Origin: an uncultured Dehalococcoidaceae bacterium
GTDB lineage: Bacteria > Chloroflexota > Dehalococcoidia > Dehalococcoidales > RBG-16-60-22
Assembly (NCBI GenBank): GCA_964409485.1
Contig: CAYPDM010000001.1
Span: 1,175 to 65,174, forward strand
Direction of reading: 5' to 3'
Length of the DNA: 64,000 nucleotides
Shown here: in pieces, positions 36,797 through 60,104 of the stretch
Layout of the letters: each line of letters begins with the position of its first letter
How positions within the stretch are numbered: the stretch's first letter is position 1
The notes under the pieces: model-generated
Database searches by the model: none
Seen by the model: the letters and a program-made list of their open reading frames with translations, nothing else
What the model was told of the DNA's origin: nothing
Program-made: the position numbers and the translations under genes

Positions 36797-36857
36797 ATAC
36801 GTATACGTACTATCATTAAATAAGGTAAATGATATAGGATTGTTTAACAAATGTCAA
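36797..36857 (-). promoter_or_regulatory. promoter-operator cassette A (upstream of dctPQM)
   Basis: Read on the minus strand: TTGACA 36857-36852, 17 nt, TATCAT 36834-36829, 18 nt, GTACGTATACGTAT 36810-36797. The last element contains the perfect palindrome TACGTATACGTA. Confidence 0.6.
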
Positions 36858-36973
36858 CCCCTGCGAAATCGAATTGATAATCTTTCTGCCGTGGAAGTAG
36901 ACCTTCTTCCGTTGCACTACCTGGGAGAAAATAGATACAAGAGTTTAGACCGTATCTAATCTGACAAGTTTGC

Positions 36974-37870
36974 TTAAATAACACCTCTTAACTGGGGGTC
37001 AAGGGCATCCCTCAGTCCATCTCCCACCATATTGAAGGCATATACCATCAACATGATTGCCAGCCCCGGGGCAAAAGAAAGAACGGGATTCGTCAGTAAA
37101 TATTGGCGGCCGTCATTGACCATATTTCCCCAGGTGGGAGTAGGCGCCTGTACCCCGATTCCGAGAAAACTAAGCCCGGCTTCAGCCAATATCGTTGTCC
37201 CCAGCATCATGGTCATCATTACTATTAGCGGTGGAAAACAGTTGGGGGCCAGATGGCGGAACATAATGCGTATGTGACTGGCTCCCATGGAGCGTCCCGC
37301 GAGTATATAATCGTTTTCCTTGACACTCATTACCTGACCGCACATTAACCTGGCGTATATAGGCACCATGGCAAAAGCGAGTGCCATGACGACATTATTC
37401 ATTCCTCCTCCAAGAAGAGACGCGATGAGCAAAGCTAATAATATCATCGGGAAGGCCATCAGCGTATCTATCAGCCTCATAACGACTGCACGTGTCCAAC
37501 CGCCAAAATAGCCCGCAATCAATCCCAGCGCCATTCCGACTATAGCGCTAAGGACAACCACAACCAGGCCGATTAACATAGAAACTCGCGTTCCGTAGAT
37601 AGTCCGGCTAAAAGTATCTCTCCCCAGCGAATCGGTACCCAGCCAGTGAGCTTTTCCGGGTTGAAGCAGCGAGTTGTTCATGTCAATTTTATCCGGGTTA
37701 TAAGGGGCCAGCCACGGGGCGAAAATGGCGGCTATTATAAACAATAGAATGATGACCATCCCAAACACCACCACCCCCCGGTTAAGAAATACCCGGAAAA
37801 AGAGACGTAATTCCTTAGCGTGGCGAACATTTTCGATTGTGGCCGGCCCAAGATTAGCTTCTTCTGACAT
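36974..37870 (-). CDS. ABC transporter permease (DppC/OppC-type)
   Basis: 298 aa, six hydrophobic segments, typical N-terminal extension, and an EAA-loop-like block (LAGRSMGASHIRIMFRHLAPN). Confidence 0.85.
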   Translation of the reverse strand: MSEEANLGPATIENVRHAKELRLFFRVFLNRGVVVFGMVIILLFIIAAIFAPWLAPYNPDKIDMNNSLLQPGKAHWLGTDSLGRDTFSRTIYGTRVSMLIGLVVVVLSAIVGMALGLIAGYFGGWTRAVVMRLIDTLMAFPMILLALLIASLLGGGMNNVVMALAFAMVPIYARLMCGQVMSVKENDYILAGRSMGASHIRIMFRHLAPNCFPPLIVMMTMMLGTTILAEAGLSFLGIGVQAPTPTWGNMVNDGRQYLLTNPVLSFAPGLAIMLMVYAFNMVGDGLRDALDPQLRGVI

Positions 37871-37883
37871 GTCTTATTCCTTA

Positions 37884-38840
37884 TTAGTCATAATGTACCC
37901 TGGGATCGAACCATCCATAGGAGATATCTACCAGAAGGTTAGAAAAAACAATACTTATCGCCATAATTAAAGCAACCGCCTGAACATAGGGGTAATCCTG
38001 GTTCATGACAGACGTCACTGCCAATCTACCCATCCCGGGGATATTGAATACCTGTTCAATTAGTACCGCCCCTCCCAGAATAGTTCCAACTCCCATGCCG
38101 GAAAGAGTAACCACAGGCATCATGCCGTTTTTCAGGGCGTGTTTCATTATTATCGCTCTCTCTCTCAAGCCCTTGGACCATGCTGTGCGGATATAGTCTT
38201 TGCGTATAACCTCAAGCATGCTGGAGCGAGCCTGACGGGCATTTCCGGCGATTGGTCCTAAAGCTAAACAAAAAACCGGCATGATGATTTGCTTGGTACT
38301 TAACCAAAAGTTTTCAAAAGGTGATGTATACCCCATCACCGGAAGCCACCTGAAATATAGAGCAAACACATATATTAATATAATACCCAACCAGAAAACA
38401 GGCACGGTTATCCCAATATTGGCTAAGGTGGTTACGAAGTTATCCAACCAGCCACCCCGTCTGACAGCGCACAGCACTCCTGCGGGGATGCCAATAACAA
38501 TAGCAATAATAAAAGCAAGTACACCAAGATGGAAAGTTATGGGCAAACGTCTGAGTATTTCTTGTATTACAGGAGAGCGATTAAGTATCGATCTTCCTAG
38601 GTCACCACGGAAAACGCCAGTAATCCAGTCGAAATATTGCATTGGTAGTGTTTTATCCAGTCCAAACTGATGCCTCACTTCATCAAGCTGCTCTTCGGTG
38701 ATTTCTTGTACGGAACTGGCCGACATATACATGAGCACCGGGTCACCCGGCAGAAGGCGCATTGCCAGAAAGACAAATAACGAGACCAGAAATAAGACTA
38801 TTACGGCCAGTATCAACCTTCGTATGATATATGTTGTCAT
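37884..38840 (-). CDS. ABC transporter permease (DppB/OppB-type)
   Basis: 318 aa. N-terminus MTTYIIRRLILAVIVLFLVSLFVFLAMRLLPGDP is characteristic of DppB/OppB. Confidence 0.85.
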   Translation of the reverse strand: MTTYIIRRLILAVIVLFLVSLFVFLAMRLLPGDPVLMYMSASSVQEITEEQLDEVRHQFGLDKTLPMQYFDWITGVFRGDLGRSILNRSPVIQEILRRLPITFHLGVLAFIIAIVIGIPAGVLCAVRRGGWLDNFVTTLANIGITVPVFWLGIILIYVFALYFRWLPVMGYTSPFENFWLSTKQIIMPVFCLALGPIAGNARQARSSMLEVIRKDYIRTAWSKGLRERAIIMKHALKNGMMPVVTLSGMGVGTILGGAVLIEQVFNIPGMGRLAVTSVMNQDYPYVQAVALIMAISIVFSNLLVDISYGWFDPRVHYD

Positions 38841-38885
38841 ATTAAGCCTTGGCCTTTATTCCAGAATGTTACCAAGTATAGGTTT

Positions 38886-40739
38886 TTAACGTGTTTTTAA
38901 GCCCAGTCCCTTCAGTTTGGAGGCGGTCGGTGTGCCGTTCTTATCCCAGCCGCGTTCGGCGTAGTACTCGTCGAGCATTTCATCGAGGTCCTTCTGGCTT
39001 ATAAGCTGCCCCTTGGATGCACCCGCCTTGATGGGTTCCGTCATGAGACGCTTGGGGAAGGTGTCGTCCTTGCGGGTGAAGCCCGCGCCGATATTGAACA
39101 GGCGGGCGACGTTATTCAACCTTTCCCCGATTTTCTCGATATCTCCGGCGGTGAAGTTCATTCCGGAGGCGGCGTTAACCAGGTCGGCGGTATTCTGGCA
39201 GGCTATCCCCGGCACCGCCATATCAAGCAGGAAGGCGCACATCGGGGCGCAGTCGCAGGTAACGCTGCGGATGTCTTGGTTCCACTTGGTCAGCCTTCCC
39301 TTACCTTCGATAGCCATTCTATCCACTTTTTCCGGCACGGGAATATCGAAGATTTCCTGGAAAGCGTAGCCCCGGTTGTGGTCAGCGCCGGTATAGGACG
39401 TGGCATAGTTAAGACCGTGCGCCTTGGCGCCCCGCACGTCGTAGGCTGGCAGTTCCAGTCCCTTAACGTGCATGGCGTAGAACTCGGAGCCCTTGCCGAT
39501 TATTTCGGCGGCTTTTCTGGTACCCTGACTAAGGATATCCCCGATGCCCTCGCGGTAGGTTATTTTACGCAGCATTTCCAGAAGGATGCTGTGGTTCCCG
39601 AACTTGAGTTCCAGTCCGTCAGTATCTTTTTTGGTGAGGATTCCCTTTTCGTAAAGCTCCATGGCGAACCCGATGGCCACACCTGCGGACATGGTATCCA
39701 GTCCATACTCGTCACAGAGACGATCGGCCGCGATTACCGCCGGTAAATAATCAATTCCCAGCGTGCTACCCAGCGAATAGGTTGTCTCATACTCGGGGCC
39801 TTCACTCATATAGCCTGCGTATGGCCCGGCTGTGACCAGTTTTATCTGGCTACAGCCTACCGGGCAGTCGTGACAGTGGGCTTTGTGGATAATCATCTTG
39901 GCTTGAGCCGCGTCACCGAGTCCCTTGACCATGTCGATTTCACCGGTAGCTGACCAGTTATTGATGGGATAGATGCCCATTGCCGAGGTAGCGTCTACGA
40001 CCATCGGCGTGCCCGATTTCGAAAACTGCGGATAGAGCACTGGACTTTCCTTCATGGCCTTGTTCATCGCCTGCCGGGCTTTCCTGAATTTCTCGGCATC
40101 GACCACATTAGGACGTTTAGTGCCTCGCACGGCGATGGCTTTGAGGTTCTTGGAGCCCATCACCGCCCCCAAACCCTTTCTTCCCGCAGCGCGGCGCTCG
40201 TTGACAATGCAGGCCATGGGACTCAGGTTCTCTCCGGCGGGGCCTATGCAGGCGATCCGGTAATTCTGGTCGCCGAGTTCATCCTTGATAACCAGCTGCG
40301 TATCGGTGGTCAACATGCCACTCACCTTATCGGCGTTGCGGAAACGCACCTTGCCGTCTTTGATGGCTACATAGGTGGGCTTTTCTGCTTTGCCTTCGAT
40401 GATTATCATGTCGTAGCCGGCCATTTTCATCTCGGCGGGGAACTGCCCACCGGCGAGGGCCATGCCGACGGCACCCGTCAGCGGCGACTTAGCCACCACG
40501 GCCATCCGGCTGGCACAGGCGGCTCCGGAAGCTGTCAGCGGCCCCACGGCAAAAATTAATTTATTCGCCGGGTCCAGCGCCGGTGTTTTCGGCTTCACTT
40601 CGTCGTAGAGGTATTTAATCGCAAACCCTGCCCCTCCCAGGTAATCCCGGACAAGCTCATCGGGGATTACTTCCTCCCGGCTGGTTTGGTCGGTGAGGTT
40701 TATTCTTAATATCTTGCCTGCATATCCACCTTTGTACAT
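38886..40739 (-). CDS. aor: aldehyde:ferredoxin oxidoreductase family enzyme, copy 2
   Basis: 617 aa. N-terminus GKILRINLTDQTSREE...YLGGAGFAIKY and CHDCPVGC (CX2CX3C). RBS AAGGAGG upstream. Confidence 0.85.
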   Translation of the reverse strand: MYKGGYAGKILRINLTDQTSREEVIPDELVRDYLGGAGFAIKYLYDEVKPKTPALDPANKLIFAVGPLTASGAACASRMAVVAKSPLTGAVGMALAGGQFPAEMKMAGYDMIIIEGKAEKPTYVAIKDGKVRFRNADKVSGMLTTDTQLVIKDELGDQNYRIACIGPAGENLSPMACIVNERRAAGRKGLGAVMGSKNLKAIAVRGTKRPNVVDAEKFRKARQAMNKAMKESPVLYPQFSKSGTPMVVDATSAMGIYPINNWSATGEIDMVKGLGDAAQAKMIIHKAHCHDCPVGCSQIKLVTAGPYAGYMSEGPEYETTYSLGSTLGIDYLPAVIAADRLCDEYGLDTMSAGVAIGFAMELYEKGILTKKDTDGLELKFGNHSILLEMLRKITYREGIGDILSQGTRKAAEIIGKGSEFYAMHVKGLELPAYDVRGAKAHGLNYATSYTGADHNRGYAFQEIFDIPVPEKVDRMAIEGKGRLTKWNQDIRSVTCDCAPMCAFLLDMAVPGIACQNTADLVNAASGMNFTAGDIEKIGERLNNVARLFNIGAGFTRKDDTFPKRLMTEPIKAGASKGQLISQKDLDEMLDEYYAERGWDKNGTPTASKLKGLGLKTR

Positions 40740-40804
40740 CGGATTACCTCCTTTTAGTATATGGTAATCATACTTACTATGGTCAGATCAATCCCAAACA
40801 AATC

Positions 40805-42019
40805 TTATTCAAAAATCCCTTCTAGTAGATACTTATCATACTCTTCCTCGGACATGCCTAACAGGTCTCGACAGATGTATTCTGTATGTTCACCGAGGCA
40901 GGGAGCGACGTTATACAGCCTCGCAGGTGTCTTTGATAATCGGGATGGTTGTCCCAGGTGCGAAAATCTCCCGAGCTCCTTATGGTTCTCAACCCAGAAA
41001 CACTCTCTTTCTTTCAGTTGCACATTGTTATACAGATCCTCTGCATTCTGAACAACGCCCGCAGCCACCCCCACTTTTTGAAGCATTCTCATAATTTCCT
41101 CAGCCTCATGTTGAGATGTCCACTGCTCTATCGACCGGTTAAGCTGCGCTTCGTTTTTCTTTCTGTCCGTAGCGGTACGGAATTCTGGCTTTTTCAGCCA
41201 GTCTGGTTCTCCAATTGCATTACAAAATGCCTGCCACTCCGTATCAGTAAGTACGCTGATAGCACACCAGCGGTCATCTCCTTTACACCGATAGACGCCA
41301 TGTGGCACTGCGTAATCGCTTGAATTTCCCCTTGCCTTCTCTTCTTTCTTGTTCACTAAATAATTGATCAGGGACGGGGCTAGAAGCTGGAGGCCGACCT
41401 CGAATTGAGAGACATCTATCAACTGCCCCTTGCCGGTTTTTCTCCGGTAATCTAACGCACCTATCAGGGCGGTAGCTGCGAAATGCGGTACTAAATAATC
41501 GGTATAAGCAACCATTAAAGATATTGGTTCTTGCTCCGGCCAACCAACGAGATTAACGATCCCGGCTAAACCGTTAATATGGTTGCCAAGCCCCGGATGG
41601 GTAGCCGCTGGGCCCGTCAAACCCTGGTTTGAATTACGTATCATGATGATGTCCGTTTTAATTTTTACCAGGTCATCGTAGCCCAATTTCCAACGCTCCA
41701 TCACCCCGGGTCTATGGCTATCCGCAACGACATCTGCGCTAGAAACTAATTTTCTGGCGATCTTCAAACCATTAGGTTTGTTCAGGTTAAGACTGATGCT
41801 GTATTTATTTGCGGCAAAATAGGCAAAGTAGCCGGCCCGATCAACTCCGGCAACCTCGTCTTTATATGGTGTGGATGTCCGCAGGAGGTCAGGCCGCTGG
41901 AAAGATTCTATACAGATCACCGTGGCGCCGTAGTCAGCCAGATATTTCAGGGTCAACGGACCGGCAATCGCCCAGCCAAAGTCGACGACTATTATCCCAT
42001 TAAAAACACTCTTATCCAT
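40805..42019 (-). CDS. family III (CaiB/BaiF-type) CoA-transferase, subunit/paralogue 2
   Basis: 404 aa. N-terminus GIIVVDFGWAIAGPLTLKYLADYGATVICIES fits the family III signature. Confidence 0.8.
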   Translation of the reverse strand: MDKSVFNGIIVVDFGWAIAGPLTLKYLADYGATVICIESFQRPDLLRTSTPYKDEVAGVDRAGYFAYFAANKYSISLNLNKPNGLKIARKLVSSADVVADSHRPGVMERWKLGYDDLVKIKTDIIMIRNSNQGLTGPAATHPGLGNHINGLAGIVNLVGWPEQEPISLMVAYTDYLVPHFAATALIGALDYRRKTGKGQLIDVSQFEVGLQLLAPSLINYLVNKKEEKARGNSSDYAVPHGVYRCKGDDRWCAISVLTDTEWQAFCNAIGEPDWLKKPEFRTATDRKKNEAQLNRSIEQWTSQHEAEEIMRMLQKVGVAAGVVQNAEDLYNNVQLKERECFWVENHKELGRFSHLGQPSRLSKTPARLYNVAPCLGEHTEYICRDLLGMSEEEYDKYLLEGIFE

Positions 42020-42062
42020 GTGTTTTTCTATTCGCTTTCAGTTTCCCAGGATTCGCCATGTT

Positions 42063-43316
42063 CTATATCACCCCCCTTTGCTGCAGAGCGGTCAGCTTGG
42101 AATGAGATAGACCCAGTTCACCCTGGTAAATATCGAGGTTATGTTCGCCAATTAAAGGAGCCCTGTGCTTAATCGTTAGCGGCGTTTGAGACAGCTTGGC
42201 GAAAGCACCGGGGTATGTAATGCTGGTTGATAGCTCGGGATGGTTGACCTCCACCCAGAAGTCCCTGGATTTCAACTGGGTATTTTCTAATATATCTTTA
42301 CTGGTGCAAACAGGGCATAACATTATTCCCCTTTTTTGAGCCTCATTGTAAAGTTCTTCTTTTGTATATTTCATGAACAGGCCGGCAATTGGAGCTTCTA
42401 TTAAGTCCTGCATCTCTTGAGTTTGATTCGCCATATCAAAAACTTCCCAGTCAAAGTCCTTCAAGTATTCGGGAACCATATTCTCCTCTTCCATCCACTC
42501 GACAATTGCCTTGTTAGTCTTGGCTCCGAAGGCACCACCCAAGATGTAAAATAGCACATATCCGTCCTGACATTTCCACAACAGACGTTGCTTGGTACCC
42601 GTCCACCGGCCAGTCATATAGGAGCCTGCTCGCCTCAAGACATTCTGGTTTAACTCCCAAAGAGGAATTGCGTTAGCAATCTCCCACAGCACACACTCCT
42701 GGGCTGATACATCGACGTGCTGCCCCTCCCCGCTGGTTTCACGATAGAAATGGGCCACCATTGAAGCGGCCGCGCTATGAGCCGAGGCGAGTAGAAAAAC
42801 CTGGGGCAGGCTGATCCTCAAAGGAGGTTGGTCTGGATTTCCCGTGATATACATCAGGCCACCCATAGCCATGACTACAATATCCGTCGCTTTATAATTC
42901 TTATACGGTCCATTAAGTCCAAAAGGTGTAATAGATGTCATTATCAAACGAGGATTTATCTTGCTTAGAGTCGTATAGCCAAGGCCAAGCTTGTCCAAAT
43001 AATCGGGCGTGAAAGATTCAATTACGAAGTCAGCTGTCTTGATTAATTTCTTGAAAATCTGCTGCCCATCTCTGGACTCGATATCTAGGGTAATACCTCG
43101 TTTGTTGAGATTATAGGCAAACCAATAAAGGCTTTTCTCGGGATTGGGGATATCATGATAAAAAGGTCCGAGGTTACGTGACTCGTCTCCTCCCGGGCTC
43201 TCGATCTTTATGACATCGGCTCCCAGGTCAGCGAGTATTTTACCGCAGAGAAAGCCTTTTTCGTTAGTTAAATCTAGCACACGATAAGAGTCCAGGAGCC
43301 CTTTTTGCTGTTCCAT
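42063..43316 (-). CDS. family III (CaiB/BaiF-type) CoA-transferase, subunit/paralogue 1
   Basis: 417 aa. YRVLDLTNEKGFLCGKILADLGADVIKIESPGGDESR fits the family III signature. Confidence 0.8.
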   Translation of the reverse strand: MEQQKGLLDSYRVLDLTNEKGFLCGKILADLGADVIKIESPGGDESRNLGPFYHDIPNPEKSLYWFAYNLNKRGITLDIESRDGQQIFKKLIKTADFVIESFTPDYLDKLGLGYTTLSKINPRLIMTSITPFGLNGPYKNYKATDIVVMAMGGLMYITGNPDQPPLRISLPQVFLLASAHSAAASMVAHFYRETSGEGQHVDVSAQECVLWEIANAIPLWELNQNVLRRAGSYMTGRWTGTKQRLLWKCQDGYVLFYILGGAFGAKTNKAIVEWMEEENMVPEYLKDFDWEVFDMANQTQEMQDLIEAPIAGLFMKYTKEELYNEAQKRGIMLCPVCTSKDILENTQLKSRDFWVEVNHPELSTSITYPGAFAKLSQTPLTIKHRAPLIGEHNLDIYQGELGLSHSKLTALQQRGVI

Positions 43317-43398
43317 ATACTAAAAACTTTCTTCTTAAACATCATTCGCATTACCAGCGTGAAAATTCTTTTAGAAATGGCGTTCAAAAAATATGAAC

Positions 43399-44607
43399 TC
43401 ATCCCGTTTTTGGGCGGGTCGGCTTTTTAATCTTACTCTGCAAACGCGTATTAAGGGGTGTAATTTGATTTTCTCTAGACGGTAGAGCTACGATGGCAAT
43501 GCCGGGCATTACATCTTCTCCCCTCTGGTTAACCGCATGGCGTTCAATCTCCACACAGTAATCCCCATCATCATCGACATATTTTTTGATAACTCTGCCT
43601 TTAAGCCAGACTACGTCTGATAGATAAACGAATTTTCTGTATTCGGCATAGCTCCTCTTCAACCATGCGTCATCTCCCATCCAGTTGGTAATTAGATGAA
43701 TTCCCCAACAGTGCCTCTGCAGACCGACATCATACGCCTGTGGAAGTCCCATAGCATTAGCGGCCTGTTTGTTGTAGTGAACGGCAAAGATCGGCTCAAG
43801 AGCATTTGTATTTGGATCCCTGAAAGCCCATGCTGGATGCTTGCGGTAAGTTCTTAATGACACACCATGTGCCGCTATCCTTGGTATGGGCACTCCCCCA
43901 CCGATAATGTAAGCGACCTCATCAGTAGTTCCTAATGGACCCTTGACGACTGGCTTTAGCTCTTCGCCAATGTCAACGTCCTCCCAGTAACGGGGGACAG
44001 CTCCTCTAATTTCTTCGGAGAGGATTTCATTCTCAATTTCTTTTAGCTGCTTTTCTGTCCAAGGATGAGGGAGCTTAATGCTTTTTTGGGTGCCTTTCTG
44101 CTGGGCTTTACCTCTGGCAAAGCGTACCACCCACCAATGATACCTGGCTACCAAATCACCTCTCTGGTTCCAGTACTGGTTATCGAAATGGTCGATGACA
44201 GTCTCCTCGGCAAAGCTGCTCTTCTTCGGCCCATCAAAGCTTTTAAAAACACACTCTGCGGTTATTTTATCACCGAGATATATTGGCTTTAGGAACTCAA
44301 CGTCACAGCCGGCATGAAAACCACCAAGCCCCCGCCATCCAAACTGCACCTGGGCAAAACATGCCCAGATAAAGGAGGGAGGAGCAATAATGCTCTTATA
44401 TCGTGTATTTTCGGCATAATCGGCATCAACCCATAATCTATTCGGGTCACCGATACCTGCTGCGAATTTTAATATGGCCATCCTAGTAGCATATTCATTA
44501 TGCGTAGAGTCATCGATACGGAGTTTTGTCCCCAGCTTTGCTCGCATTCCATCTATCATCTCTCGAGTAATCGAGGCAGTTTCCATTTTTATTTTCTCTT
44601 CTTTCAT
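43399..44607 (-). CDS. double hot-dog fold (FAS1-like dehydratase N-domain + MaoC-like) enoyl-CoA hydratase/dehydratase
   Basis: 402 aa. N-half ILKFAAGIGDPNRLWVDADYAENTRYKSIIAPPSF; C-half ends in a MaoC-like beta sheet (VVWLKGRVIKKYVDDDGDYCVEIERHAVNQRGEDV). The start could be the second ATG (44586). Confidence 0.55.
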   Translation of the reverse strand: MKEEKIKMETASITREMIDGMRAKLGTKLRIDDSTHNEYATRMAILKFAAGIGDPNRLWVDADYAENTRYKSIIAPPSFIWACFAQVQFGWRGLGGFHAGCDVEFLKPIYLGDKITAECVFKSFDGPKKSSFAEETVIDHFDNQYWNQRGDLVARYHWWVVRFARGKAQQKGTQKSIKLPHPWTEKQLKEIENEILSEEIRGAVPRYWEDVDIGEELKPVVKGPLGTTDEVAYIIGGGVPIPRIAAHGVSLRTYRKHPAWAFRDPNTNALEPIFAVHYNKQAANAMGLPQAYDVGLQRHCWGIHLITNWMGDDAWLKRSYAEYRKFVYLSDVVWLKGRVIKKYVDDDGDYCVEIERHAVNQRGEDVMPGIAIVALPSRENQITPLNTRLQSKIKKPTRPKTG

Positions 44608-44743: not shown

Positions 44744-44804
44744 AATAATACGTGTACGTACATCATTTGTGATATAATATATCTTATAGGTTAATGATTG
44801 TCAA
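44744..44804. promoter_or_regulatory. promoter-operator cassette B in the divergent hydratase-operon / MarR intergenic region
   Basis: Minus strand: TTGACA 44804-44799, 17 nt, TATATT 44781-44776, 14 nt, GTACGTACACGTAT 44761-44748. Plus strand: extended -10 TGATATAAT 44770-44778. The flank AATAATACGTGTACGTAC (44744-44761) matches site A at 17 of 18 positions. Confidence 0.55.
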
Positions 44805-44920
44805 TTATTCAATGGAGCTTAAAGAAGATGCTCTTGATTTCACTGTTTAATTATTTTAAATTATATTAAGTCGTAAATTATGAAATAAAGAGGTAATGAA
44901 ATAAGGAAGGACTGAAAACG

Positions 44921-45427
44921 ATGAGTAAAGTCGAAGACAAAGAATATGACTTATGGATATTGTTAAGCCGGGTATATCACCTGATCGCTAAACTAAGAAA
45001 CTTAGAGCTTTTAAAATATAATATTCTACCGGTGCAATCTTATATTTTATTCATTATCAAAGCTCTCGGAAACGAAACTACCCCTACAGAAATATCCGGA
45101 TACGTGTATCAACAGAGAAGTTCAATCTCGGACATCCTCAATAGGATGGTAAAGCAAGGTCTAATAGTAAAAAGAAATCAATCGGGTGGGAATAGACGCG
45201 TAATAGTCACCTTAACTAACAATGGAGAAAGGGCTCTCGCCCTTTCCGCTGATAGAGAATATCTTCACAAAGTGATGTCCTCATTAACTGAGGGTAAAAA
45301 GCGGCAATTGGAATCATCCCTAGAAATGTTACGCGATGCCGCCATCAATGAACTTTCTGTAACCCAGAAGACAGTCATGCGGCCTTCTCTAATATCGGAG
45401 TATTATAGGAAGAAAAACCAATTGTAG
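44921..45427 (+). CDS. MarR-family winged-helix transcriptional regulator
   Basis: 168 aa. LLSRVYHLIAKLRNLELLKYNILPVQSYILFII...TPTEISGYVYQQRSSISDILNRMVKQGLIVKR shows the MarR wHTH pattern. RBS AAGGAAGG upstream. Confidence 0.8.
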   Translation: MSKVEDKEYDLWILLSRVYHLIAKLRNLELLKYNILPVQSYILFIIKALGNETTPTEISGYVYQQRSSISDILNRMVKQGLIVKRNQSGGNRRVIVTLTNNGERALALSADREYLHKVMSSLTEGKKRQLESSLEMLRDAAINELSVTQKTVMRPSLISEYYRKKNQL

Positions 45428-48157: not shown

Positions 48158-48257
48158 AAACCTCTGCTTCTGAGAACTGAGGGCCATCTATGTAAGCAGA
48201 CGTTATCCCAGGGATTTCAGTGTCAAGATAGATGACGCAAAGGGAGCATCAAAAGAC

Positions 48258-49187: not shown

Positions 49188-49201
49188 AAAGGAGAAGCGA
49201 A

Positions 49202-50089
49202 ATGATAAATATTGATATTGATGAGCTACTCAGTGGCTCAATTGACATGCATATGCATCCGGGCCCTGCCGGAGGTCCTTGCCGTCTCGATGCTCTTGAA
49301 GCAGCCGAGCAGGCAAAGCAGGCCAGAATGAGGGGCATTGTCCTTAAGAGCCATAGTTATACTGCCTCTGCAGTGGCAATCATCGTGAATCAATTAGTAC
49401 CTGACATACACGTTTTCGGAAGTGTCTGCCTCGATTATGAAATCGGGGGGCTTAATTCTCACGCCGTGGAAAACGCAGCCTATCTCGGGGCTAAAGTAGT
49501 CTGGATGCCTACCTTCTCTTCCGCCAATTCAATCAATAAGATGAGGGCGTTGGGACTTCCCCTTAAAGGTGAAGGACTCTCACTAATAGATGATGCGGGC
49601 AAACTAGTACCGGAAATGGAACCCATACTCACACTTATAAAAGAACATGATATGATATTAGCTACTGGTCATATTTCTCCGCAGGAAACGTTAATTCTCC
49701 TAAATGAGGCGCAGAGAATCGGGATAAAAAAATACATCATCACCCATCCTACGGATAAAGAATTTTCAGAAAAACTTTTAAGTATTGATGAGCTGCAGCA
49801 ACTGGCCAAGATAGGGGCGTTTATTGAGTTCACTCTGGTTGGAATGTTACCAAATGAGTTTTGTCATGACCCAGCACAAATCGCGCGGACAATCAAGACT
49901 ATCGGCGCGGAACACTGTATCATCAGTACCGATCTTGGTCAACCCCAAAATCCGCTCCCGGTCGAGGGTATGAGGTTACTTATGGCCACCCTGCTTCATC
50001 ACGGAATATCACAGGAAGAAGTTGAGTTGATGGCTAAAATAAATCCGGCAACTCTTTTGGACCTAGATAAAAACTCTGAAATTCATTAA
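49202..50089 (+). CDS. amidohydrolase-superfamily (metal-dependent TIM-barrel hydrolase-like) protein
   Basis: ORF 49169..50089; start moved to ATG 49202 after AAAGGAGAAG. HxH (DMHMHPG), later ATGHIS, ITHP and ISTDLG give the His/His/Asp order of the amidohydrolase fold. Substrate unknown. Confidence 0.5.
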   Translation: MINIDIDELLSGSIDMHMHPGPAGGPCRLDALEAAEQAKQARMRGIVLKSHSYTASAVAIIVNQLVPDIHVFGSVCLDYEIGGLNSHAVENAAYLGAKVVWMPTFSSANSINKMRALGLPLKGEGLSLIDDAGKLVPEMEPILTLIKEHDMILATGHISPQETLILLNEAQRIGIKKYIITHPTDKEFSEKLLSIDELQQLAKIGAFIEFTLVGMLPNEFCHDPAQIARTIKTIGAEHCIISTDLGQPQNPLPVEGMRLLMATLLHHGISQEEVELMAKINPATLLDLDKNSEIH

Positions 50090-50165
50090 CAAAAGGAGTC
50101 TTTTTTACAGATACCACAGACTTGATTTCAGGAAAAATGAAAAATTAAGGAGTATACAGATTTAC

Positions 50166-51947
50166 ATGACAAGTAAAAAAATAGCAGTTTTGAGACCGCA
50201 AGGCAAAGCCTCTCCAATACAATTGGAGCCTATGGCACCTCGGCTTGATACCCTCGAGGGCAAAACAGTATACATCGTAGACATGAATTTTCCGCGAACG
50301 CATCAATTCTGGGAAGAGATGCAAAAAATGCTCGCCAACAGATACCCCGAGACGACCTGGGTACTCAGGATTAAGGTAGGCACTTACTTTCATAATGACC
50401 CAGAGCTATGGGCTGAAATTAAGGAAAAAGGCGATGGAGTGATAATGGGTATCGGTCAGTTAGATACCTGTACGCCGTCGGTCATCATCTTTTGCTCGAT
50501 ATTAGAAAAATTAGGGCTGCCTACAGCACCCGTTGTTACTGAGGCATTTCCAAGAATCGCAAAGAGCTTTGCGTATAAGAAGGGAATGCCCGAACTACGA
50601 TTTACTTTTGTTCCCCATCCTTTCGCAAATAGACCACTCGAGGTACACCGGAAATATCTAGAGGGTAACGACCCAATAAACGGCAAGCCAGTTTTAGATG
50701 AAATTGTTGAGGCATTGACCAAACCGATAACTGATAAGGAAACGAAGACAGGGACTATAGATAGGTCAATGCCGAGGCTGTTAGAGCCTGATACCCCGGA
50801 GAATCTGGAGCGCCTCTTTATTGAAAAAGGATGGACTGATTATCTTCCGATAGTGCTTCCTACGGAAGAAAGAGTAGCCGAGATGCTCGAAGGAACGAGC
50901 CATAAACCTGATGAAGTAGTTGGCATAATGCAACCCATCCCTCCCAACGAGGTCTGGGACAACCTCACCAAGCGGCTTGGTTCCGGTGGACTGAGAAGAG
51001 GAGCTGAAAGAGAGCATTTCCCGGTAGTTATGCAACCCTCCCCTCCTCATGAGGCCTGGGAGTATACCGTAGAGCATATCGCCATTAACGCCGTGATGGC
51101 AGGAGCCAAACCAGAGCATTTCCCGGTAATATTGGCCATAGCATCGACAGGGGCAACCTCGCTGTTCAGTTCCGCGACTTCTATGACGAGGATGGTCGTC
51201 GCTAATGGGCCTATACGAAAAGAGATAAATATGAATTGTGGTCTGAGTGCACTGGGCCCGTTTAATCAGGCTAACGCTGTCATTGGAAGGGCCTGGACAC
51301 TCATATCCAAGAATCTAGGAGGATCGATACCGGGTGAAACTTATCTGGGAGATTTAGGTAATAATACCAACTACAATAATAATTGTTTCGCAGAGAACGA
51401 GGAGGTACTGCCCGAAGGATGGAGTCCTTTACATGTACAAAAGGGTTATAAGTCAGATGAAAGCGTTGTTAGTATTTTAGGTGGTTGGAGTATGCTTAAC
51501 TACGCTGCTTATAAACCACATCCACATCACGAAATAATGAAACGGCAGCTGCAAAGTTTTGAAACCAGTGGAGCCGGCACACACCACACTCCTGGAATAA
51601 ACCCCGGAACTCAAGCTACTTTTTTGTTAAGCCCGATAACGTCAAGGGATCTTAAGAATGAAGGCTTCAATAGCAAGGAGCAGTTAAGCCAATGGCTCAA
51701 GGAAAATACCTATATGACTCTTTGGAACTATTGGGCAGCTATGCCTGATGACCTTGAATCTGGCAAGGCAGGTGTCGAGCCATTTGCGTCTTTGTTGAAA
51801 CTTCCACCGGAAGCGAACTCGCCGCGACCACTTATCCTGCGCGATATACCGGTTGAGATAGTGGTAGTTGGAGGGGGAACCGATGCATTTTGGATGGCTG
51901 GTGATCTTTCTTGTATGGCGTCAGCATCAATAGATACATGGAGGTAA
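50166..51947 (+). CDS. unassigned 593-aa protein, paralogue P1 (two-domain, function unknown)
   Basis: Long ORF, last gene of the GRE transcription unit. Clearly homologous to 53700..55487 (blocks LPIVLPTEERV, IAINAVMAGAKPEHFPVILA, GPIRKEINMN). No named family recognised. Confidence 0.7.
   Translation: MTSKKIAVLRPQGKASPIQLEPMAPRLDTLEGKTVYIVDMNFPRTHQFWEEMQKMLANRYPETTWVLRIKVGTYFHNDPELWAEIKEKGDGVIMGIGQLDTCTPSVIIFCSILEKLGLPTAPVVTEAFPRIAKSFAYKKGMPELRFTFVPHPFANRPLEVHRKYLEGNDPINGKPVLDEIVEALTKPITDKETKTGTIDRSMPRLLEPDTPENLERLFIEKGWTDYLPIVLPTEERVAEMLEGTSHKPDEVVGIMQPIPPNEVWDNLTKRLGSGGLRRGAEREHFPVVMQPSPPHEAWEYTVEHIAINAVMAGAKPEHFPVILAIASTGATSLFSSATSMTRMVVANGPIRKEINMNCGLSALGPFNQANAVIGRAWTLISKNLGGSIPGETYLGDLGNNTNYNNNCFAENEEVLPEGWSPLHVQKGYKSDESVVSILGGWSMLNYAAYKPHPHHEIMKRQLQSFETSGAGTHHTPGINPGTQATFLLSPITSRDLKNEGFNSKEQLSQWLKENTYMTLWNYWAAMPDDLESGKAGVEPFASLLKLPPEANSPRPLILRDIPVEIVVVGGGTDAFWMAGDLSCMASASIDTWR
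50928..51131 (+). repeat. in-frame 2 x 102-bp tandem duplication inside P1
   Basis: Copy 1 (50928-51029) and copy 2 (51030-51131) share their ends (ATGCAACCC..CC.CC at the 5' end, GAGCATTTCCCGGTA at the 3' end) but have diverged centres. The peptides are MQPIPPNEVW...EREHFPVV and MQPSPPHEAW...KPEHFPVI. Confidence 0.75.
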
Positions 51948-52243
51948 AAACGCAACGAATTCCCTCCCTGTTTGTTACAGGTTCTGTTGCGGAATAATAT
52001 TCATACCGATATTAACATTCGGCTAACGCTGACCCTACCCCAATAGAGTGATTAGGGGCTGGAGTTTTTAAAACCTCCGGCCCTCTCGCATTGACTGAGC
52101 AAAGGAACATAAAAAAGACATGGGATCGGGTAAGATTCCTCGGACTAAACTGCGCATAGAAACTCAAGAAAAGTAGCACTAACAAATGAAGTCTCCTTTC
52201 CGGTCGGCAAATTATTTGGTACCAGTTCATGTTGTGAAGAGCA

Positions 52244-53671
52244 CTATGGTGAAGTTTGCTTCACTACTTTCGAGAAGCTGGTTCGTATTTCGCACCGGTC
52301 ACAGACATTCAGGTACTGGTCCGTGTTTACCGAATAATCGAGCCAGTCAGGAACCCCCCGTGCCCAAGGTTTACCGGTCTTTGCGAAGCTAGCCCACAAG
52401 CCCATCATGGCCTCCGAAACATTTCTGTCAATCGCACTCAGGCCGGGATTGGCCGTTTTGGCGCCGGCCTGTTGCGCTAGCATATACACGGAGGTCCACC
52501 AACCGGTGGAATTATCCCAATCGCCGAAGACGTAAGGAAGCTCCATCGAATGTACGGAGACGCAGCCTTCATTCCTCCATACTGCGGGTACCTGGTCGAA
52601 GATGCAAGCATATCCGTTACATCCCTGCTTATTCACAGATTCCAGCATCTCGATGTAGGCCGGAATAATATAAGGCATGACTAGTGGACCAGGCCCGGTC
52701 AACTCGCCTAGGTTAGCAGAAACTATGAGGGGCACAGCATTGCAGGAACCGGACTTAAACGTATTCTCGGGACTCTCCGGCAGCACCCAGCCATCCACGG
52801 CTGCATCCCAAACAAAGGCCGGGCGGTTGGTAGGAGTGCTCGGCCCTTCTATTGCCTGACTGGCTTTGATGATTTCTATAAAGGGTATCGCGCGCGCCTG
52901 CTCCAGTGGGTCAACAGCCGAGTCTATCCCCAGCTTTTCAAAAAGCGTTTTTCCACTGTTTTCGATATTCACCAGTGGTTTGCTGAGTAAGATGGCCATA
53001 GCCGTGCCGCTTTCGCAGATGGCTCGGTGGAACAGCCCCTTTGCAAGAGGTGACGACATCATAATGGACACCTTGGCTCCGCCGCCGGACTCTCCGAAGA
53101 TGGTGACATTGTCTGGGTCGCCGCCGAATGCCGCGATGTTGTCTCGCACCCACTGAAGGGAGGCGATGAGGTCAAGGAACAAGTAATTACCCGACACGCC
53201 CATCGGCGATTCTTCCGAAAGCGCGGAATGGGCTAACAGTCCAATCGGTCCAAGTCTGTGATTCAGAGTAACAACCACGACGCCATATTGAGGCAGGCGG
53301 TAGTTGTTCCATATTCTGTCATTACCACATCCCATCGAGTATCCTCCGCCATGCATCCAGACCATGACCGGTAGTTTCTCATCTGGTTCGCGTGCTGGTG
53401 TAACCACGTTCAGATAAAGGCAGTCTTCACTTTGGGGCATTTCACCTGATATACCGGGCATGAGAGGCTGGGGTGAGATATGACTGAATTGGGTACATTC
53501 GCGGATTCCTTCCCAGGGCACAACAGGCTGCGGTGGTTTCCAGCGCAAGTCTCCCACCGGAGGAGCTGCAAACGGGATTCCACGGAAGATAGATACTTCT
53601 TTCCCCGGCTCACCAATTAGAGTACCTGAAACGTAGCCCTTATCGGTTCTGACAATCTGCATATCATACAC
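52244..53671 (-). CDS. type-B carboxylesterase/lipase family serine hydrolase
   Basis: 475 aa. FRGIPFAAPPVGDLRWKPPQP, EDCLYLNV and the nucleophile elbow GESGGG. Confidence 0.85.
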   Translation of the reverse strand: MYDMQIVRTDKGYVSGTLIGEPGKEVSIFRGIPFAAPPVGDLRWKPPQPVVPWEGIRECTQFSHISPQPLMPGISGEMPQSEDCLYLNVVTPAREPDEKLPVMVWMHGGGYSMGCGNDRIWNNYRLPQYGVVVVTLNHRLGPIGLLAHSALSEESPMGVSGNYLFLDLIASLQWVRDNIAAFGGDPDNVTIFGESGGGAKVSIMMSSPLAKGLFHRAICESGTAMAILLSKPLVNIENSGKTLFEKLGIDSAVDPLEQARAIPFIEIIKASQAIEGPSTPTNRPAFVWDAAVDGWVLPESPENTFKSGSCNAVPLIVSANLGELTGPGPLVMPYIIPAYIEMLESVNKQGCNGYACIFDQVPAVWRNEGCVSVHSMELPYVFGDWDNSTGWWTSVYMLAQQAGAKTANPGLSAIDRNVSEAMMGLWASFAKTGKPWARGVPDWLDYSVNTDQYLNVCDRCEIRTSFSKVVKQTSP

Positions 53672-53699
53672 CTAATTTATAAAAATTCCGTAGCTTTTA

Positions 53700-55487
53700 T
53701 TAGCAGCCTGATTCGGTCAATGTGGCTCCTCTTATCAACTTTGTCTTGTGTGCCGTACGGAAATATGACATTCCAAAAGAATAACCCGGTATACTACCGG
53801 ACACGACGATATGAATGTCTTCCGGGTTTACGACAGGGACCTTTCCTCCTGGTTTGAGGGATTCTTTAATCACCGGTAAGCGGTCTTCAGGAATGGCATC
53901 GTGTGGATAGAATATGTCTATATCGGGGGGTTTGGTGTTAATCCTGTCATGTATACCCTGGATTTCCTGTTCACTGAGCTCTTCGTACGGTACAAGTGTA
54001 CTTTCATAGAGATAATCTCGCAGGCTTCGCTTGCTATTATAACCGATACGCTGCAGCATGATAGCCATTTCGGGATGAATGACGAGTATGTGTTTTCTGA
54101 GATGAGCCATGGGGTTAGCCACCCCAACTTTATATTGAGCAAACGTGCCGCGGTCAGCAGCTATATCTTTCACCATGCTGTCGAGGACCGGCTTTACATC
54201 CCAGGGCTCAACCACTCCTCCGCCATATATCCTCATACCTAAACCACCCATGACGGTGTCCACGGTCACGCAACTATCTTCCGGCTTGTAACCCAGGCCC
54301 TCATTAAACGTTTCCCAGGGGCTCTGCTCTATATTTTCGGCGAAAGTGTAGAAGGTATGCGGGGACGGGCGGCCGATCAGCGCCATATCGATCTCTCCCG
54401 GCCACAGGTAACCGATATTGATCAGGCTCAATCTTACGGCGCGGCCGATGGTATTGTTGGCTCGCCAGCCGTGACCTAATAAGCCTACTCCGGAATTCAT
54501 GTTAATTTCTTTGCCAAGAGGCCCGCTTACCATTATCATAAGAGTGAAGGAGCCTTCTGAACTCATCATGTGAGTGTAAGTACCCTCTTCAGTCAGGCAT
54601 TCCATGGCTGCAATTATCACCGGCAGATACTCAGGCCTTGCCCCCGCCATCACCGCGTTAATAGCTATCTTTTCAACAGTGGCGATACCGTTTCGATAAG
54701 GTACCCGGCCTATAACTTCATTGGGAGAACGCTTGGTCCCTGTTAGCATCCACTTAACGGCCTGTTCCGTGGGAGGTATCAGGGGCAACCCATCGCCCCA
54801 GTGGTTATCAAGGTACAGCCGGTTGAATGATTCAAGGGCGGACTCATAACTCTCCGCAGTAACCTCAACTGTTTCAGCAGTCTTTTTTAAGGCCTTTAGC
54901 TCCGGGTTTTTCTCCTCCGGTGCCAGGGGCCGGTTTAGGGCGTCGATAATAAGGTCAATGGACGCTTCGGCAACAGGCCTAATACTTTCCACGGTCAACC
55001 GGTTCGGGTAATAATCTATTGAAGGCAGGCTTACGATACGTAACGCGGGCATTCCCGCGTCCTCGGCTGACATCTTGGCGGTGTGAGTAGCGTTATCACC
55101 GACCACGAAAACGCCGGGTTTGCCAAGTTTTTCTAATGCGACTACCTGCAAGCACTGAATCCAGCCTCCCATGCCGTTATCGCCGACGCCGTAGATAAAA
55201 GTATCCATTTCTTTTTTTGCCTTCTCCGCCGCCTCGGCATCTCCCCAGACAAGCCGAATGGTCGTCGCTGTTGGATACCTTTCTTTCAGCAGTTCCTCGA
55301 CTGCGATACAGAAATTATCCCCACCTTTCTTACCGTCCCAGATTATTCCGATCTTCTTACCTGCCAGATCCTTTATGCGAGGGTTGATGAGCCCCGAAGG
55401 CACCGGAACTTCAAGCACACCCTGAGGATTTAAACACAACAATGAGACTTTTTCTTTCAATTTTTTCACCCCTTCTTGAAATAACAT
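53700..55487 (-). CDS. unassigned 595-aa protein, paralogue P2 (two-domain, function unknown)
   Basis: Homologous along its length to P1 (HWGDGLPLIPPTEQAV, IAINAVMAGARPEYLPVIIA, GPLGKEINMN, NNTIGRAV). Lies between the UROD-like and esterase genes. Confidence 0.7.
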   Translation of the reverse strand: MLFQEGVKKLKEKVSLLCLNPQGVLEVPVPSGLINPRIKDLAGKKIGIIWDGKKGGDNFCIAVEELLKERYPTATTIRLVWGDAEAAEKAKKEMDTFIYGVGDNGMGGWIQCLQVVALEKLGKPGVFVVGDNATHTAKMSAEDAGMPALRIVSLPSIDYYPNRLTVESIRPVAEASIDLIIDALNRPLAPEEKNPELKALKKTAETVEVTAESYESALESFNRLYLDNHWGDGLPLIPPTEQAVKWMLTGTKRSPNEVIGRVPYRNGIATVEKIAINAVMAGARPEYLPVIIAAMECLTEEGTYTHMMSSEGSFTLMIMVSGPLGKEINMNSGVGLLGHGWRANNTIGRAVRLSLINIGYLWPGEIDMALIGRPSPHTFYTFAENIEQSPWETFNEGLGYKPEDSCVTVDTVMGGLGMRIYGGGVVEPWDVKPVLDSMVKDIAADRGTFAQYKVGVANPMAHLRKHILVIHPEMAIMLQRIGYNSKRSLRDYLYESTLVPYEELSEQEIQGIHDRINTKPPDIDIFYPHDAIPEDRLPVIKESLKPGGKVPVVNPEDIHIVVSGSIPGYSFGMSYFRTAHKTKLIRGATLTESGC

Positions 55488-55543
55488 TTATTTATCAAGG
55501 CAAAAGCCATGCTTCTATACATTAGACTTCTTTGTTTTATTAA

Positions 55544-56881
55544 TTAATGATAAACACCATATTCCCTGGCCGCCTCCATAAAGGCACGAAGATTTTCAGG
55601 CTTGGCTTCTGTGACTGCGGTTCCGCCGGTTAGGACGTAGCCACCGCCGGGAGCACAAGCTTCGATAAGTTTACGGCAACATTCTTTGACATCTTTAACC
55701 TCTCCGAAAGCTAACAATGAAGCTGGCACGTTGCCAACGACACAACAAGTATCCCCGATCATTCGTTTAGCTTTAGCCATGTCAGTCTGATCAAACTGCC
55801 ATGTTACCCAGCCTTTAGGGAAATCCCCGATATACTCTAGCCTATTATTGTAGCGACCCTCACAAAATAGCGAGACCATGATACCTTCGTCGATAAGGGC
55901 AAGGATTAATTTTCTCAGACTCGGCCAGTAGAATTTTTCAAACTGTTTATTAGACATAAAGGTATCATCTCCTTTATGTAAGGGGAAATTAACGGTAAAA
56001 ACGCCCATCGCGTTAACACTGTCTATAGTACGCCGTATCATCTGTTCCAGAATCATATCGGTAGCTTCCAGGATCTTCTCCGGGTTGCGAAACATGTCTA
56101 TGGCGCTCCCCTGTGTCCCGCGTAGATGATCGGCGATCACGTCGAAGGGGGCCATGGCGAGGCCGCCCATGCTCATCGGAAAACCAGCCGCAATTGCGTC
56201 TCTATTAACAATCATAAGTTGTTTCTGGAACTTTTCTAACTCTTCACCGGCTTCCATTAGTTTTTGAAACGCTCTCCGCATTTCCGGTCTGGTAAAAGGA
56301 TAAGCAAGCACCATAGGCATGCCCGTCAAAGAGCTAAGTGGAGGGAAATTCTTCAATGCCTCCAGGGCACCCAAGACCCGCGGCGTCACGACTCTGAACC
56401 CAAAATCGGAAGGGTCTTTAAGTAAGTCATCATATTCATCTTCACTCATCAATATTGTCTCTACATATTGATGGTATCCCGCATCTTCGGGCAGCCCATG
56501 CCCCGGCCACATAAATGTTTTCATATCTAAAATATCAAGCATCTGCCCGCAAATGATACCCTCCGGTCCGAGAAAATCATCCATATCATCGTAAAAATCA
56601 TTCATAAATTTAGTCCAGGTTGGGCGGATAAGCGTGGGATCATACATTAATTGCTTTAGAATCAACCCGGAATAAAGAATGGGAAAGTTACCCGCCGGTA
56701 CCATTACCGGTACACGGTCTGGTTCCATACACAGAAACGCCTTCATGAACCGGGTGACCCTCTCCTTGTACTCTTGTTCAGCTCTGGCATCGCGAAAGGT
56801 TACCCCTGGTGGTGAAAGCCATCTTTGTAACCTCTGTTCACGTTTTTGTTCTTTGGTCATTTCAGATTGGTGTTTTTCCAT
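55544..56881 (-). CDS. uroporphyrinogen-decarboxylase-fold (UROD/MtaA-like) family protein, long form
   Basis: 445 aa. CMEPDRVPVMVPAG near the N-terminus and an overall TIM-barrel-like pattern recall UROD-family proteins. The position that is H-x-C in MT2-type methyltransferases reads LFCEG here. Assignment is tentative. Confidence 0.4.
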   Translation of the reverse strand: MEKHQSEMTKEQKREQRLQRWLSPPGVTFRDARAEQEYKERVTRFMKAFLCMEPDRVPVMVPAGNFPILYSGLILKQLMYDPTLIRPTWTKFMNDFYDDMDDFLGPEGIICGQMLDILDMKTFMWPGHGLPEDAGYHQYVETILMSEDEYDDLLKDPSDFGFRVVTPRVLGALEALKNFPPLSSLTGMPMVLAYPFTRPEMRRAFQKLMEAGEELEKFQKQLMIVNRDAIAAGFPMSMGGLAMAPFDVIADHLRGTQGSAIDMFRNPEKILEATDMILEQMIRRTIDSVNAMGVFTVNFPLHKGDDTFMSNKQFEKFYWPSLRKLILALIDEGIMVSLFCEGRYNNRLEYIGDFPKGWVTWQFDQTDMAKAKRMIGDTCCVVGNVPASLLAFGEVKDVKECCRKLIEACAPGGGYVLTGGTAVTEAKPENLRAFMEAAREYGVYH

Positions 56882-57005
56882 AAATAATTACTCCTAATTG
56901 TTTCAAAGTACTGTAAACTCTCGAAATAATTTACCTATATTTACTAATTTACAGATATATTTTGTTAGATAATGGGCGTAAAGAGTTTGACAACGGACGG
57001 GGGGC

Positions 57006-57066
57006 TTGACATTCATGAAAGCATATTATATCATTGGGTAACAAAAAATCAAGTACGTATACGTAT
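57006..57066 (+). promoter_or_regulatory. promoter-operator cassette C (upstream of the aldolase/SBP array)
   Basis: TTGACA 57006-57011, 17 nt, TATCAT 57029-57034, 18 nt, GTACGTATACGTAT 57053-57066. The hexamers, spacings and 14-mer are identical to cassette A. Confidence 0.6.
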
Positions 57067-60039: not shown

Positions 60040-60104
60040 CATAACAACCATCACGATAAAAGTTGAATTAACAAGGAAAAACTACATTGTAGTAATAAAG
60101 GAGT

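Follow-up and report, generated by a model that had tools for sequence, protein, structure and literature searches.

The window analysed here is a 64-kb stretch (64,000 nucleotides) of contig CAYPDM010000001.1 from an uncultured Dehalococcoidaceae bacterium. It contains a gene island in which three intergenic cassettes join a sigma-70-like promoter to one and the same 12-bp palindrome, TACGTAYACGTA. Site A heads dctPQM, site B heads the MaoC-like hydratase operon and site C heads the DHDPS-like/SBP5 operon (Table 1). A gene for a MarR-family protein, marR, stands beside site B on the opposite strand, and the relation between this protein and the palindrome is the subject of the present work. 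An earlier note on this DNA had reported the three cassettes with their coordinates and strands, and all three were confirmed when the regions were read.

Table 1. Cassettes, further promoters and transcription units of the gene island
Feature	Position	Strand	Elements or relation
dctM, dctQ, dctP (TRAP transporter)	33556-36573	-	behind site A
Site A cassette	36797..36857	-	TTGACA 36857-36852, 17 nt, TATCAT 36834-36829, 18 nt, GTACGTATACGTAT 36810-36797
Two Opp/Dpp-type ABC permeases, aldehyde:ferredoxin oxidoreductase (AOR), two family III CoA-transferases, MaoC/FAS1_DH hydratase	36974-44607	-	behind site B
Site B cassette	44748..44804	-	TTGACA 44804-44799, 17 nt, TATATT 44781-44776, 14 nt, GTACGTACACGTAT 44761-44748
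Candidate marR promoter	44834..44862	+	TTGATT 44834-44839, 17 nt, TAAATT 44857-44862
marR (168 aa)	44921-45427	+	Pfam MarR_2
Glycyl radical enzyme (GRE), activase, DUF6282, UGSC protein	45665-51947	+	downstream of marR, no operator
Carboxylesterase, UGSC-domain protein, URO-D-like	52244-56881	-	behind site C divergent promoter
Divergent promoter at site C	57025..57052	-	TTGATT 57052-57047, 16 nt, TATAAT 57030-57025, TG before -10
Site C cassette	57006..57071	+	TTGACA 57006-57011, 17 nt, TATCAT 57029-57034, 18 nt, GTACGTATACGTAT 57053-57066
DHDPS-like, SBP_bac_5, DHDPS-like, SBP_bac_5	57277-62876	+	behind site C
Third DHDPS-like gene	63147 to window end	+	own promoter TTGACA-16-AATAAT 63001-63028, no operator

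The recurrence of this arrangement by chance had been judged very unlikely, and the counts agree. The composite pattern TTGACA N16-18 TANNNT N11-20 TACGTAYACGTA occurs three times in the window versus 0.00 in 100 dinucleotide-preserving shuffles, and TTGACA-17-TATnnT followed 14-18 nt on by GTACGTAYACGTAT likewise gives three matches where 0.00 are expected. With at most one mismatch, the 12-mer TACGTATACGTA is found in the 64 kb at sites A, B and C only, plus an overlapping register at 57060; with at most two mismatches there are seven matches versus 1.35 expected. When sigma-70-like promoters were ranked, sites A and B were the top two in 32-52 kb (11/12 consensus positions) and site C was joint best in 52-64 kb. 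Transcription starts were taken to lie about 7 nt past each -10, which would put the operator core at about +14 to +25 at site A (core 36809-36798) and site C, and at about +10 to +21 at site B. At site C a third, degenerate hexamer, TATGTA, follows the operator at 57066-57071. The flank AATAATACGTRTACGTAC is common to sites A and B, an agreement that the earlier note had described correctly. No relation is seen among the three sites in the stretch from the -10 to the palindrome; their -35/-10 spacers show a moderate likeness (9-10/17 by a manual pairwise count), and the site classes have in common TTGACATTyAT and an AT-rich run ahead of the -10.

When 52 distinct regulon cassettes were pooled, the operator flanks showed R at position 7 (G 56%, A 42%) and W at positions 8 and 9, symmetrically on both sides. 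Within the core, the loci retrieved through the MarR protein vary at the central base only (A/G or T/C). The predicted operator is about 18 bp, WWR-TACGTA-TACGTA-YWW, and extends the 12-bp palindrome. The core is a direct and an inverted repeat alike because TACGTA is its own reverse complement. Possible half-sites, TAACGTATAC, had also been proposed, with wrong coordinates: they actually lie at 32479-32488 and 57141-57150. We reject them as operator elements, though two are found in the window versus 0.06 expected. The copy at 57141 differs even among the closest orthologues, and the one at 32479 coincides in part with the -10 of a DUF7669 gene that is unrelated and lies beyond the island.

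Two comparative tests bear on the palindrome, one starting from the protein and the other from the DNA. An alignment search for MarR homologues, with one genome per species, gave 15 loci (numbered L), which were chosen without reference to the motif. Eleven are from Dehalococcoidia/Chloroflexi metagenome-assembled genomes (MAGs) and four from Acidobacteriota MAGs, with MarR identities of 57-82%. The neighbours in the window are 82-95% identical at the protein level to those of the Dehalococcoidia MAG L011, and across the 15 loci the window-homologous neighbours of marR are the hydratase, the CoA-transferases, the GRE and UGSC proteins. With at most one mismatch, TACGTAYACGTA occurs 24 times in the 243,370 bp of these loci versus 0.61 (maximum 4) in shuffles. 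Almost all copies are intergenic, beside marR or ahead of the same gene families. An intergenic copy lies directly upstream of marR in 10 Dehalococcoidia loci, and in the eleventh, L011, the sequence ends 126 bp before marR; other copies precede UGSC, flavoprotein, DHDPS-like and URO-D-like genes. The Dehalococcoidia copies stand 12-19 nt downstream of promoters that match the consensus at 10-12/12 positions, a geometry not imposed by the search. In the distant clade L021-L024 (57-59% identity) one palindrome lies between face-to-face promoters, which read toward marR and toward CoA-transferase genes. The Acidobacteriota copy lies about 45 bp ahead of a CoA-transferase gene, which is part of a same-strand cluster that meets marR at its far end; the copy has at most one mismatch in L018 and L020 and two in L017 and L019. 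The presence of marR, palindrome and CoA-transferase/hydratase genes together in Acidobacteriota suggests that the regulator gene travels with its putative sites.

Over 57-100% protein identity and two phyla the operator core is kept at 12/12 positions, with the central base varying and the two mismatches of L017 and L019 as just described. Alignment of the hydratase-marR intergenic regions leaves as invariant blocks the operator ATAATACGTRTACGTA, the -10 and -35 of the hydratase promoter, and a block CTTGATTT, 17 nt, TAAATTATATT, invariant together with TTATATT, which we assign to the marR promoter. For the DHDPS class, 21 orthologous loci (proteins 71-94% identical to that of the window) were aligned with the window; a 75-bp block that starts at the -35 and extends about 12 nt beyond the palindrome shows about 90% conservation in 20 of the 22 aligned sequences, and its flanks are unalignable.

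Starting from the DNA, a metagenome scan for the composite pattern given above retrieved at least 132 cassettes on at least 117 stretches. Among the cassettes listed, the first downstream open reading frame (ORF) is DHDPS-like in at least 22, a MaoC-like hydratase in at least 13, an OYE/thioredoxin-reductase-like flavoprotein in at least nine, DctP in at least seven, a CoA-transferase in at least six, a UGSC protein in at least six, SBP5 in at least five and URO-D-like in at least one. At least 28 have no usable downstream ORF, mostly at contig ends, and the remaining downstream genes occur once or form small families without relation to these. The flavoprotein family also has members that adjoin marR in L014-L016. 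Among the matches listed, 12 of 13 hydratase cassettes and 4 of 6 CoA-transferase cassettes have marR as the gene on their divergent side. All three types of predicted site in the window recur as orthologous conserved cassettes. The proposal that one operator is common to several operon heads has gained comparative support from the 15 MarR loci in two phyla, from more than 100 metagenomic loci and from the kept promoter geometry.

The scan also brought up other settings of the cassette. An unrelated MarR clade (144-158 aa, with another recognition helix) has the promoter and TACGTAYACGTA 2-20 nt before its own start (L033, L075, L078, L098, L115 and L140), and the palindrome may be used by more than one MarR lineage. 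Cassettes ahead of ParA-like ATPase genes (Pfam AAA_31/CbiA/ParA; L042, L054 and L103) and ahead of a 357-366 aa family that is tyrosine-recombinase-like by eye (L079, L089, L126 and L137) probably represent unrelated use of the palindrome on mobile elements. In L038 (2747-2881; also at 10673 in L012 and 13270-13404 in L070) two divergent cassettes lie about 120 bp apart. The L038 pair is in a 1-kb stretch without an ORF of at least 75 aa, between the stop of the GRE activase gene and the stop of marR, and in pairs of this type one cassette reads antisense into marR. Such a pair could be a rearrangement remnant or could give an antisense transcript or small RNA. The match at 4728-4805 in L108 is a false positive, a (TACGTA)n microsatellite.

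The protein itself is a member of the MarR family by Pfam, by PDB sequence search and by predicted fold. Pfam gives MarR_2 at 34.2 bits (cutoff 27) and HTH_27 at 27.2 (cutoff 22.2), and all 17 PDB sequence matches at E <= 0.01 are MarR-family or MarR-type proteins, such as OhrR and HpaR. The best match by sequence and by fold is RdhR-CbdbA1625 (5e1w), with an E value of 2.8e-10 and 25% identity over 161 columns. The AlphaFold2 (AF2) model, at a mean pLDDT of 69.9, has helices at residues 6-31, 37-49, 55-59 and 69-78, a wing at 82-98 and helices at 100-148 and 155-167. This is the MarR topology, in which helices 1, 5 and 6 mediate dimerisation and helices 3-4 and a beta wing bind DNA, with a C-terminal helix added; the top 50 PDB matches in Foldseek are all MarR-family or MarR-type, each with a probability of 1.00. 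More than 120 homologue clusters were found at 68% identity or above, and the exact sequence was found on metagenome contigs only. The recognition-helix region SxxVYQQRSSISDILNRM is invariant in homologues at least 70% identical, and S-ISDIL-RM is retained in the 57-64% clades. This constancy of the predicted recognition helix goes in parallel with that of the operator core. A C-terminal tail, (R/P)PSxxSxYY (residues 150-168), is present in all homologues down to 57% identity. The predicted helix 155-167 is additional to the usual MarR core, and the total length matches that of RdhR (5e1w).

The candidate marR promoter and the site B promoter stand back-to-back; the former is 82 bp away from the centre of the operator and contains no palindrome. 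Autoregulation of marR through an operator in its own promoter was considered and rejected for this clade, which has no such site; only the distant clade L021-L024 has one. At site C the earlier note had missed a promoter on the opposite strand. The operator abuts the -35 of this divergent promoter, with its centre at about -41.5 relative to the presumed divergent start, and the divergent promoter elements are kept in the DHDPS-class alignment. Among the DHDPS cassettes listed, the divergent neighbour is URO-D-like in 11 of 22, a UGSC gene in 4 of 22 and DUF6282 in 1 of 22. Operator C thus probably serves both overlapping promoters, including that of the URO-D-like/UGSC/carboxylesterase operon. 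The second promoter on the opposite strand accounts for part of the additional conservation of the site C block. The -35/-10 spacer of site C, TTCATGAAAGCATATTA, is itself about 90% conserved across 57006-57071 and the 21 orthologous loci, which exceeds what two promoters and one operator need, and therefore a further bound factor or a constraint at the start site is possible.

The island begins past a large serine recombinase gene (30303-31988), a DUF7669 gene and a fragment of an rve transposase gene (32786-33289), and beyond this edge the G+C content drops from about 0.55-0.60 to 0.44-0.51. The recombinase and transposase genes and the drop in G+C fit with horizontal acquisition of the putative regulon. 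The gaps between genes of the unit behind site B are 13-82 nt. The unit behind site C (57277..62993) ends at a 12-pair terminator, 62964-62993, and the near-consensus promoter of the third DHDPS-like gene lies immediately past it. The claim that the cassettes cover most genes from 33.5 kb to the window end proved overstated: only 13 of the 22 island genes are behind the three cassettes, with a further three behind the divergent promoter of site C, and the five-gene marR-GRE unit and the third DHDPS-like gene are behind operator-free promoters. No operator with up to four mismatches in the 14-mer was found ahead of the GRE gene or the third DHDPS-like gene. As to marR being the sole regulator gene of the island, domain scans of the island ORFs found no other. 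The scanned ORFs of the window showed no reductive dehalogenase domain.

The GRE falls within the PFL2/dehydratase/choline-lyase group and scores below every equivalog cutoff. The DUF6282, UGSC, URO-D-like and DHDPS-like proteins, the CoA-transferases, the AOR and both binding proteins are also below the NCBIfam equivalog cutoffs, and because every enzyme is placed under its cutoff no substrate can be assigned to the pathway. A plausible chain, drawn from domain content, would run from uptake through GRE elimination to an aldehyde, AOR oxidation to an acid and CoA transfer to hydration. The marR-GRE gap is just 47-50 nt in L011 and L013, and in L012 the GRE gene is on the same strand directly 3' of SBP5, DHDPS-like and UGSC genes. 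This placement argues that the GRE is functionally part of the regulon set despite having no operator in the window; its unit is likely read from the marR promoter or from a promoter of its own.

Several other features of the window are of interest. The dctP leader is 223 nt long (36574-36796, minus strand), and its sequence is kept across orthologues whose proteins are 65-86% identical. It contains a Shine-Dalgarno-like AAAGGAGGG followed by a three-codon ORF, ATG TTT ATC TAG (36704-36693, minus strand), which is present in three of six orthologues. A 146-aa minus-strand ORF at 63283-63723 is an antisense shadow of the third DHDPS-like gene. The first 13.5 kb hold a CODH/ACS operon (126-7689) and a selenocysteine formate dehydrogenase. 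The alpha subunit of the latter (10800-13562, plus strand) is split into two ORFs by an in-frame TGA at 11907-11909, in the context HCARL-TGA-HAPTVAGL, and because this TGA is at the classic selenocysteine site the two ORFs form a single selenoprotein gene. A second AOR gene (19458-21368, plus strand) lies outside the island with no palindrome close by.

The 12-bp palindrome is very probably the operator of the MarR protein encoded at 44921-45427, which would be a ligand-released repressor. From the observed sites, their recurrence and geometry, their co-inheritance with marR and the MarR fold, we infer binding by this protein and a negative sign of regulation. A MarR dimer would sit at about +10 to +25 of three strong sigma-70-type promoters, inside the RNA polymerase footprint, where it would prevent either open-complex formation or promoter clearance by RNA polymerase. 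The hydratase/CoA-transferase/AOR/permease unit, the TRAP transporter unit and the DHDPS-like/SBP5 unit would be kept off. At site A the dimer would also stop read-through from the upstream operon, because nothing like a terminator is listed from the permease gene up to site A. At site C it would also cover the upstream edge of the -35 of the divergent promoter of the URO-D-like/UGSC/esterase operon. Following the pattern of the family, a pathway metabolite would release the repressor; by analogy with catabolic MarR proteins this may be an organic acid or a CoA thioester. Among the products of the first predicted target operon are two family III CoA-transferases and an enoyl-CoA-hydratase-like protein, which is circumstantial evidence for a regulator of the CoA-thioester-responsive type (CouR, FerC and HcaR), whose members leave DNA in response to the acyl-CoA intermediate of the pathway that they control.

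A number of observations weigh against this assignment. In this lineage marR has a conserved promoter of its own without an operator, and many MarR proteins autoregulate. The core and promoter also stand ahead of the unrelated MarR clade, the ParA-like genes and the 357-366 aa family, and the 12-mer is not unique to this regulator because the same cassette precedes unrelated genes. The Acidobacteriota sites are without a recognisable sigma-70 promoter. The cassette scan required both promoter and palindrome and is silent on palindromes away from promoters. Finally, the 12-mer is both a direct and an inverted repeat, and the binding mode is therefore ambiguous.

Some of these points would be explained if the operator were real and bound by another transcription factor encoded elsewhere, with marR a mere neighbour, and the survey spans the 64-kb window and flanks of at most 10 kb only. 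We nevertheless regard this as unlikely. Across the 10 Dehalococcoidia loci, and at 16 of the 19 hydratase or CoA-transferase cassettes listed, marR adjoins the site, and marR, sites and target genes are found together in Acidobacteriota too. No second regulator was found in the island, nor was one seen repeatedly among the unlabelled ORFs listed for seven related loci, whose N-terminal sequences were judged by eye; in L021-L024 the single operator lies between face-to-face promoters of which one reads into marR. It is comparably improbable that the MarR protein binds as proposed and activates the divergent promoter of site C, with the two operons controlled reciprocally. The operator does abut the -35 of a conserved TTGATT-16-TATAAT promoter, some proteins of the MarR family act as activators (PMC4737184), and the 75-bp block is conserved beyond the need of two promoters and one operator. 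In the window, the divergent promoter matches the consensus at 10/12 positions and has a TG-extended -10, and thus needs no activator. The URO-D-like operon is inherited together with the other genes of the set, a point in favour of co-regulation, and a box overlapping the -35 represses in the CouR system (PMC4737184). Repression is therefore the simpler reading at this promoter.

There is very little to recommend the reading that the motif works at the RNA level, as a hairpin of the 5' leader or as an RNA site for a protein. The site does lie within the predicted transcribed leader at the three cassettes, and the leaders are about 140-225 nt long. An Rfam scan of the whole window gave no family at the gathering threshold, and RNAalifold on six DctP leaders gave only the trivial five-pair palindrome stem (-2.1 kcal/mol), with no covariation. 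It is the bases that are conserved and not the pairs, with a single central base varying; site C is also upstream of the divergent promoter, and the L021-L024 site serves both strands. Equally remote is the idea that the cassettes arose by duplication of promoter DNA or form a small dispersed repeat, and that no regulator is dedicated to them. The spacers are alike above chance, and the shared TTGACATTyAT and AT-rich run would fit a common origin of this kind. Against it, the -10-to-operator spacers differ by class in sequence and in length (14 or 18 nt) and the flanks are unrelated. Conservation within a class is limited to the promoter-operator block, over 57-94% protein identity, and the sites are confined to intergenic regions ahead of one gene set.

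With the MarR repressor as the preferred reading, a broader proposal can be made, which we put forward tentatively and consider rather doubtful as a whole. The marR gene and its invariant 12-bp operator may form a self-contained, horizontally moving module in uncultured Dehalococcoidia and Acidobacteriota. This module would wire at least four units of an uncharacterised anaerobic pathway: an eliminase-type GRE, AOR, paired CoA-transferases, a MaoC-like hydratase, DHDPS-like aldolases, UGSC proteins and two uptake systems. At site C, a single bound dimer may act in different ways on the two overlapping divergent promoters. If this is true, the operator would be a sequence tag for finding every gene of the pathway in metagenomes, and the MarR protein a ready-made sensor for its substrate.

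To our knowledge, almost nothing is known of regulation in uncultured Dehalococcoidia apart from that of dehalogenase genes. Here the regulator, the exact operator and the target genes can be read, as candidates, straight from the sequence. The shared operator groups the enzymes into one putatively co-regulated pathway, and the gene set recurs in many metagenomic assemblies. Ligands that free the MarR protein from a 20-bp duplex would offer a practical way to the substrate. As the mechanism is the standard MarR pattern, it holds little conceptual surprise; the proposed switch is well supported, and its chief use is to give access to an uncharacterised and recurrent anaerobic gene set.

In that pattern, palindromic boxes lie in marR-proximal promoters, RNA polymerase is hindered and a ligand induces release, and HucR is an example with a single site (PMC5487221). 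The system described here resembles MarR/SlyA systems in general in its winged-helix homodimer family, its palindromic site and a regulator gene divergent from a catabolic operon. A palindrome by the marR promoter region is found in the window and in 10 Dehalococcoidia loci, where it overlaps the divergent promoter and not that of marR. The system differs in that the site recurs at three or more promoters of a single island, is conserved at 12/12 positions across two phyla, and is placed downstream of the -10 and not over the -35/-10. We did not find TACGTATACGTA as a regulator binding site in the searchable literature.

The MarR-family repressor CouR of Rhodococcus jostii RHA1 controls p-hydroxycinnamate catabolism, responds to p-coumaroyl-CoA, and has one box at four promoters of one catabolic cluster (PMC4737184). 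As in the CouR regulon, a single MarR gene lies inside a catabolic cluster, several promoters with a canonical -35/-10 have the same inverted repeat, one box serves a divergent promoter pair, and CoA-dependent enzymes are among the (here predicted) regulated genes. The CouR box, cATTGA-N5-TCAATg, overlaps the -35, whereas the hexamers here are contiguous and 14-18 nt past the -10; couR is itself under regulation, whereas marR here is behind a promoter with no operator. CouR is not among the PDB sequence matches at E <= 0.01.

RdhR and Rdh2R of Dehalococcoides mccartyi are MarR-type regulators of organohalide respiration, encoded beside the reductive dehalogenase genes (rdhAB) that they control. 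They include the closest solved relative, the organohalide-sensing RdhR-CbdbA1625, from the same bacterial class and with an equal target length of 168. In the work of Krasper et al. from 2016, Rdh2R reportedly represses neighbouring promoters through a repeat over the transcription start, with its own promoter unrepressed; both features would have a counterpart in the present case. The predicted targets in the window are a GRE/AOR/CoA-transferase set with no reductive dehalogenase gene, and the operator sequence differs. The MarR protein described here is not functionally an RdhR because no dehalogenase gene is present, and at only 25% identity it is more probably a relative than an orthologue. 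The closest system in architecture is the CouR regulon, and the closest in ancestry is RdhR of Dehalococcoides.

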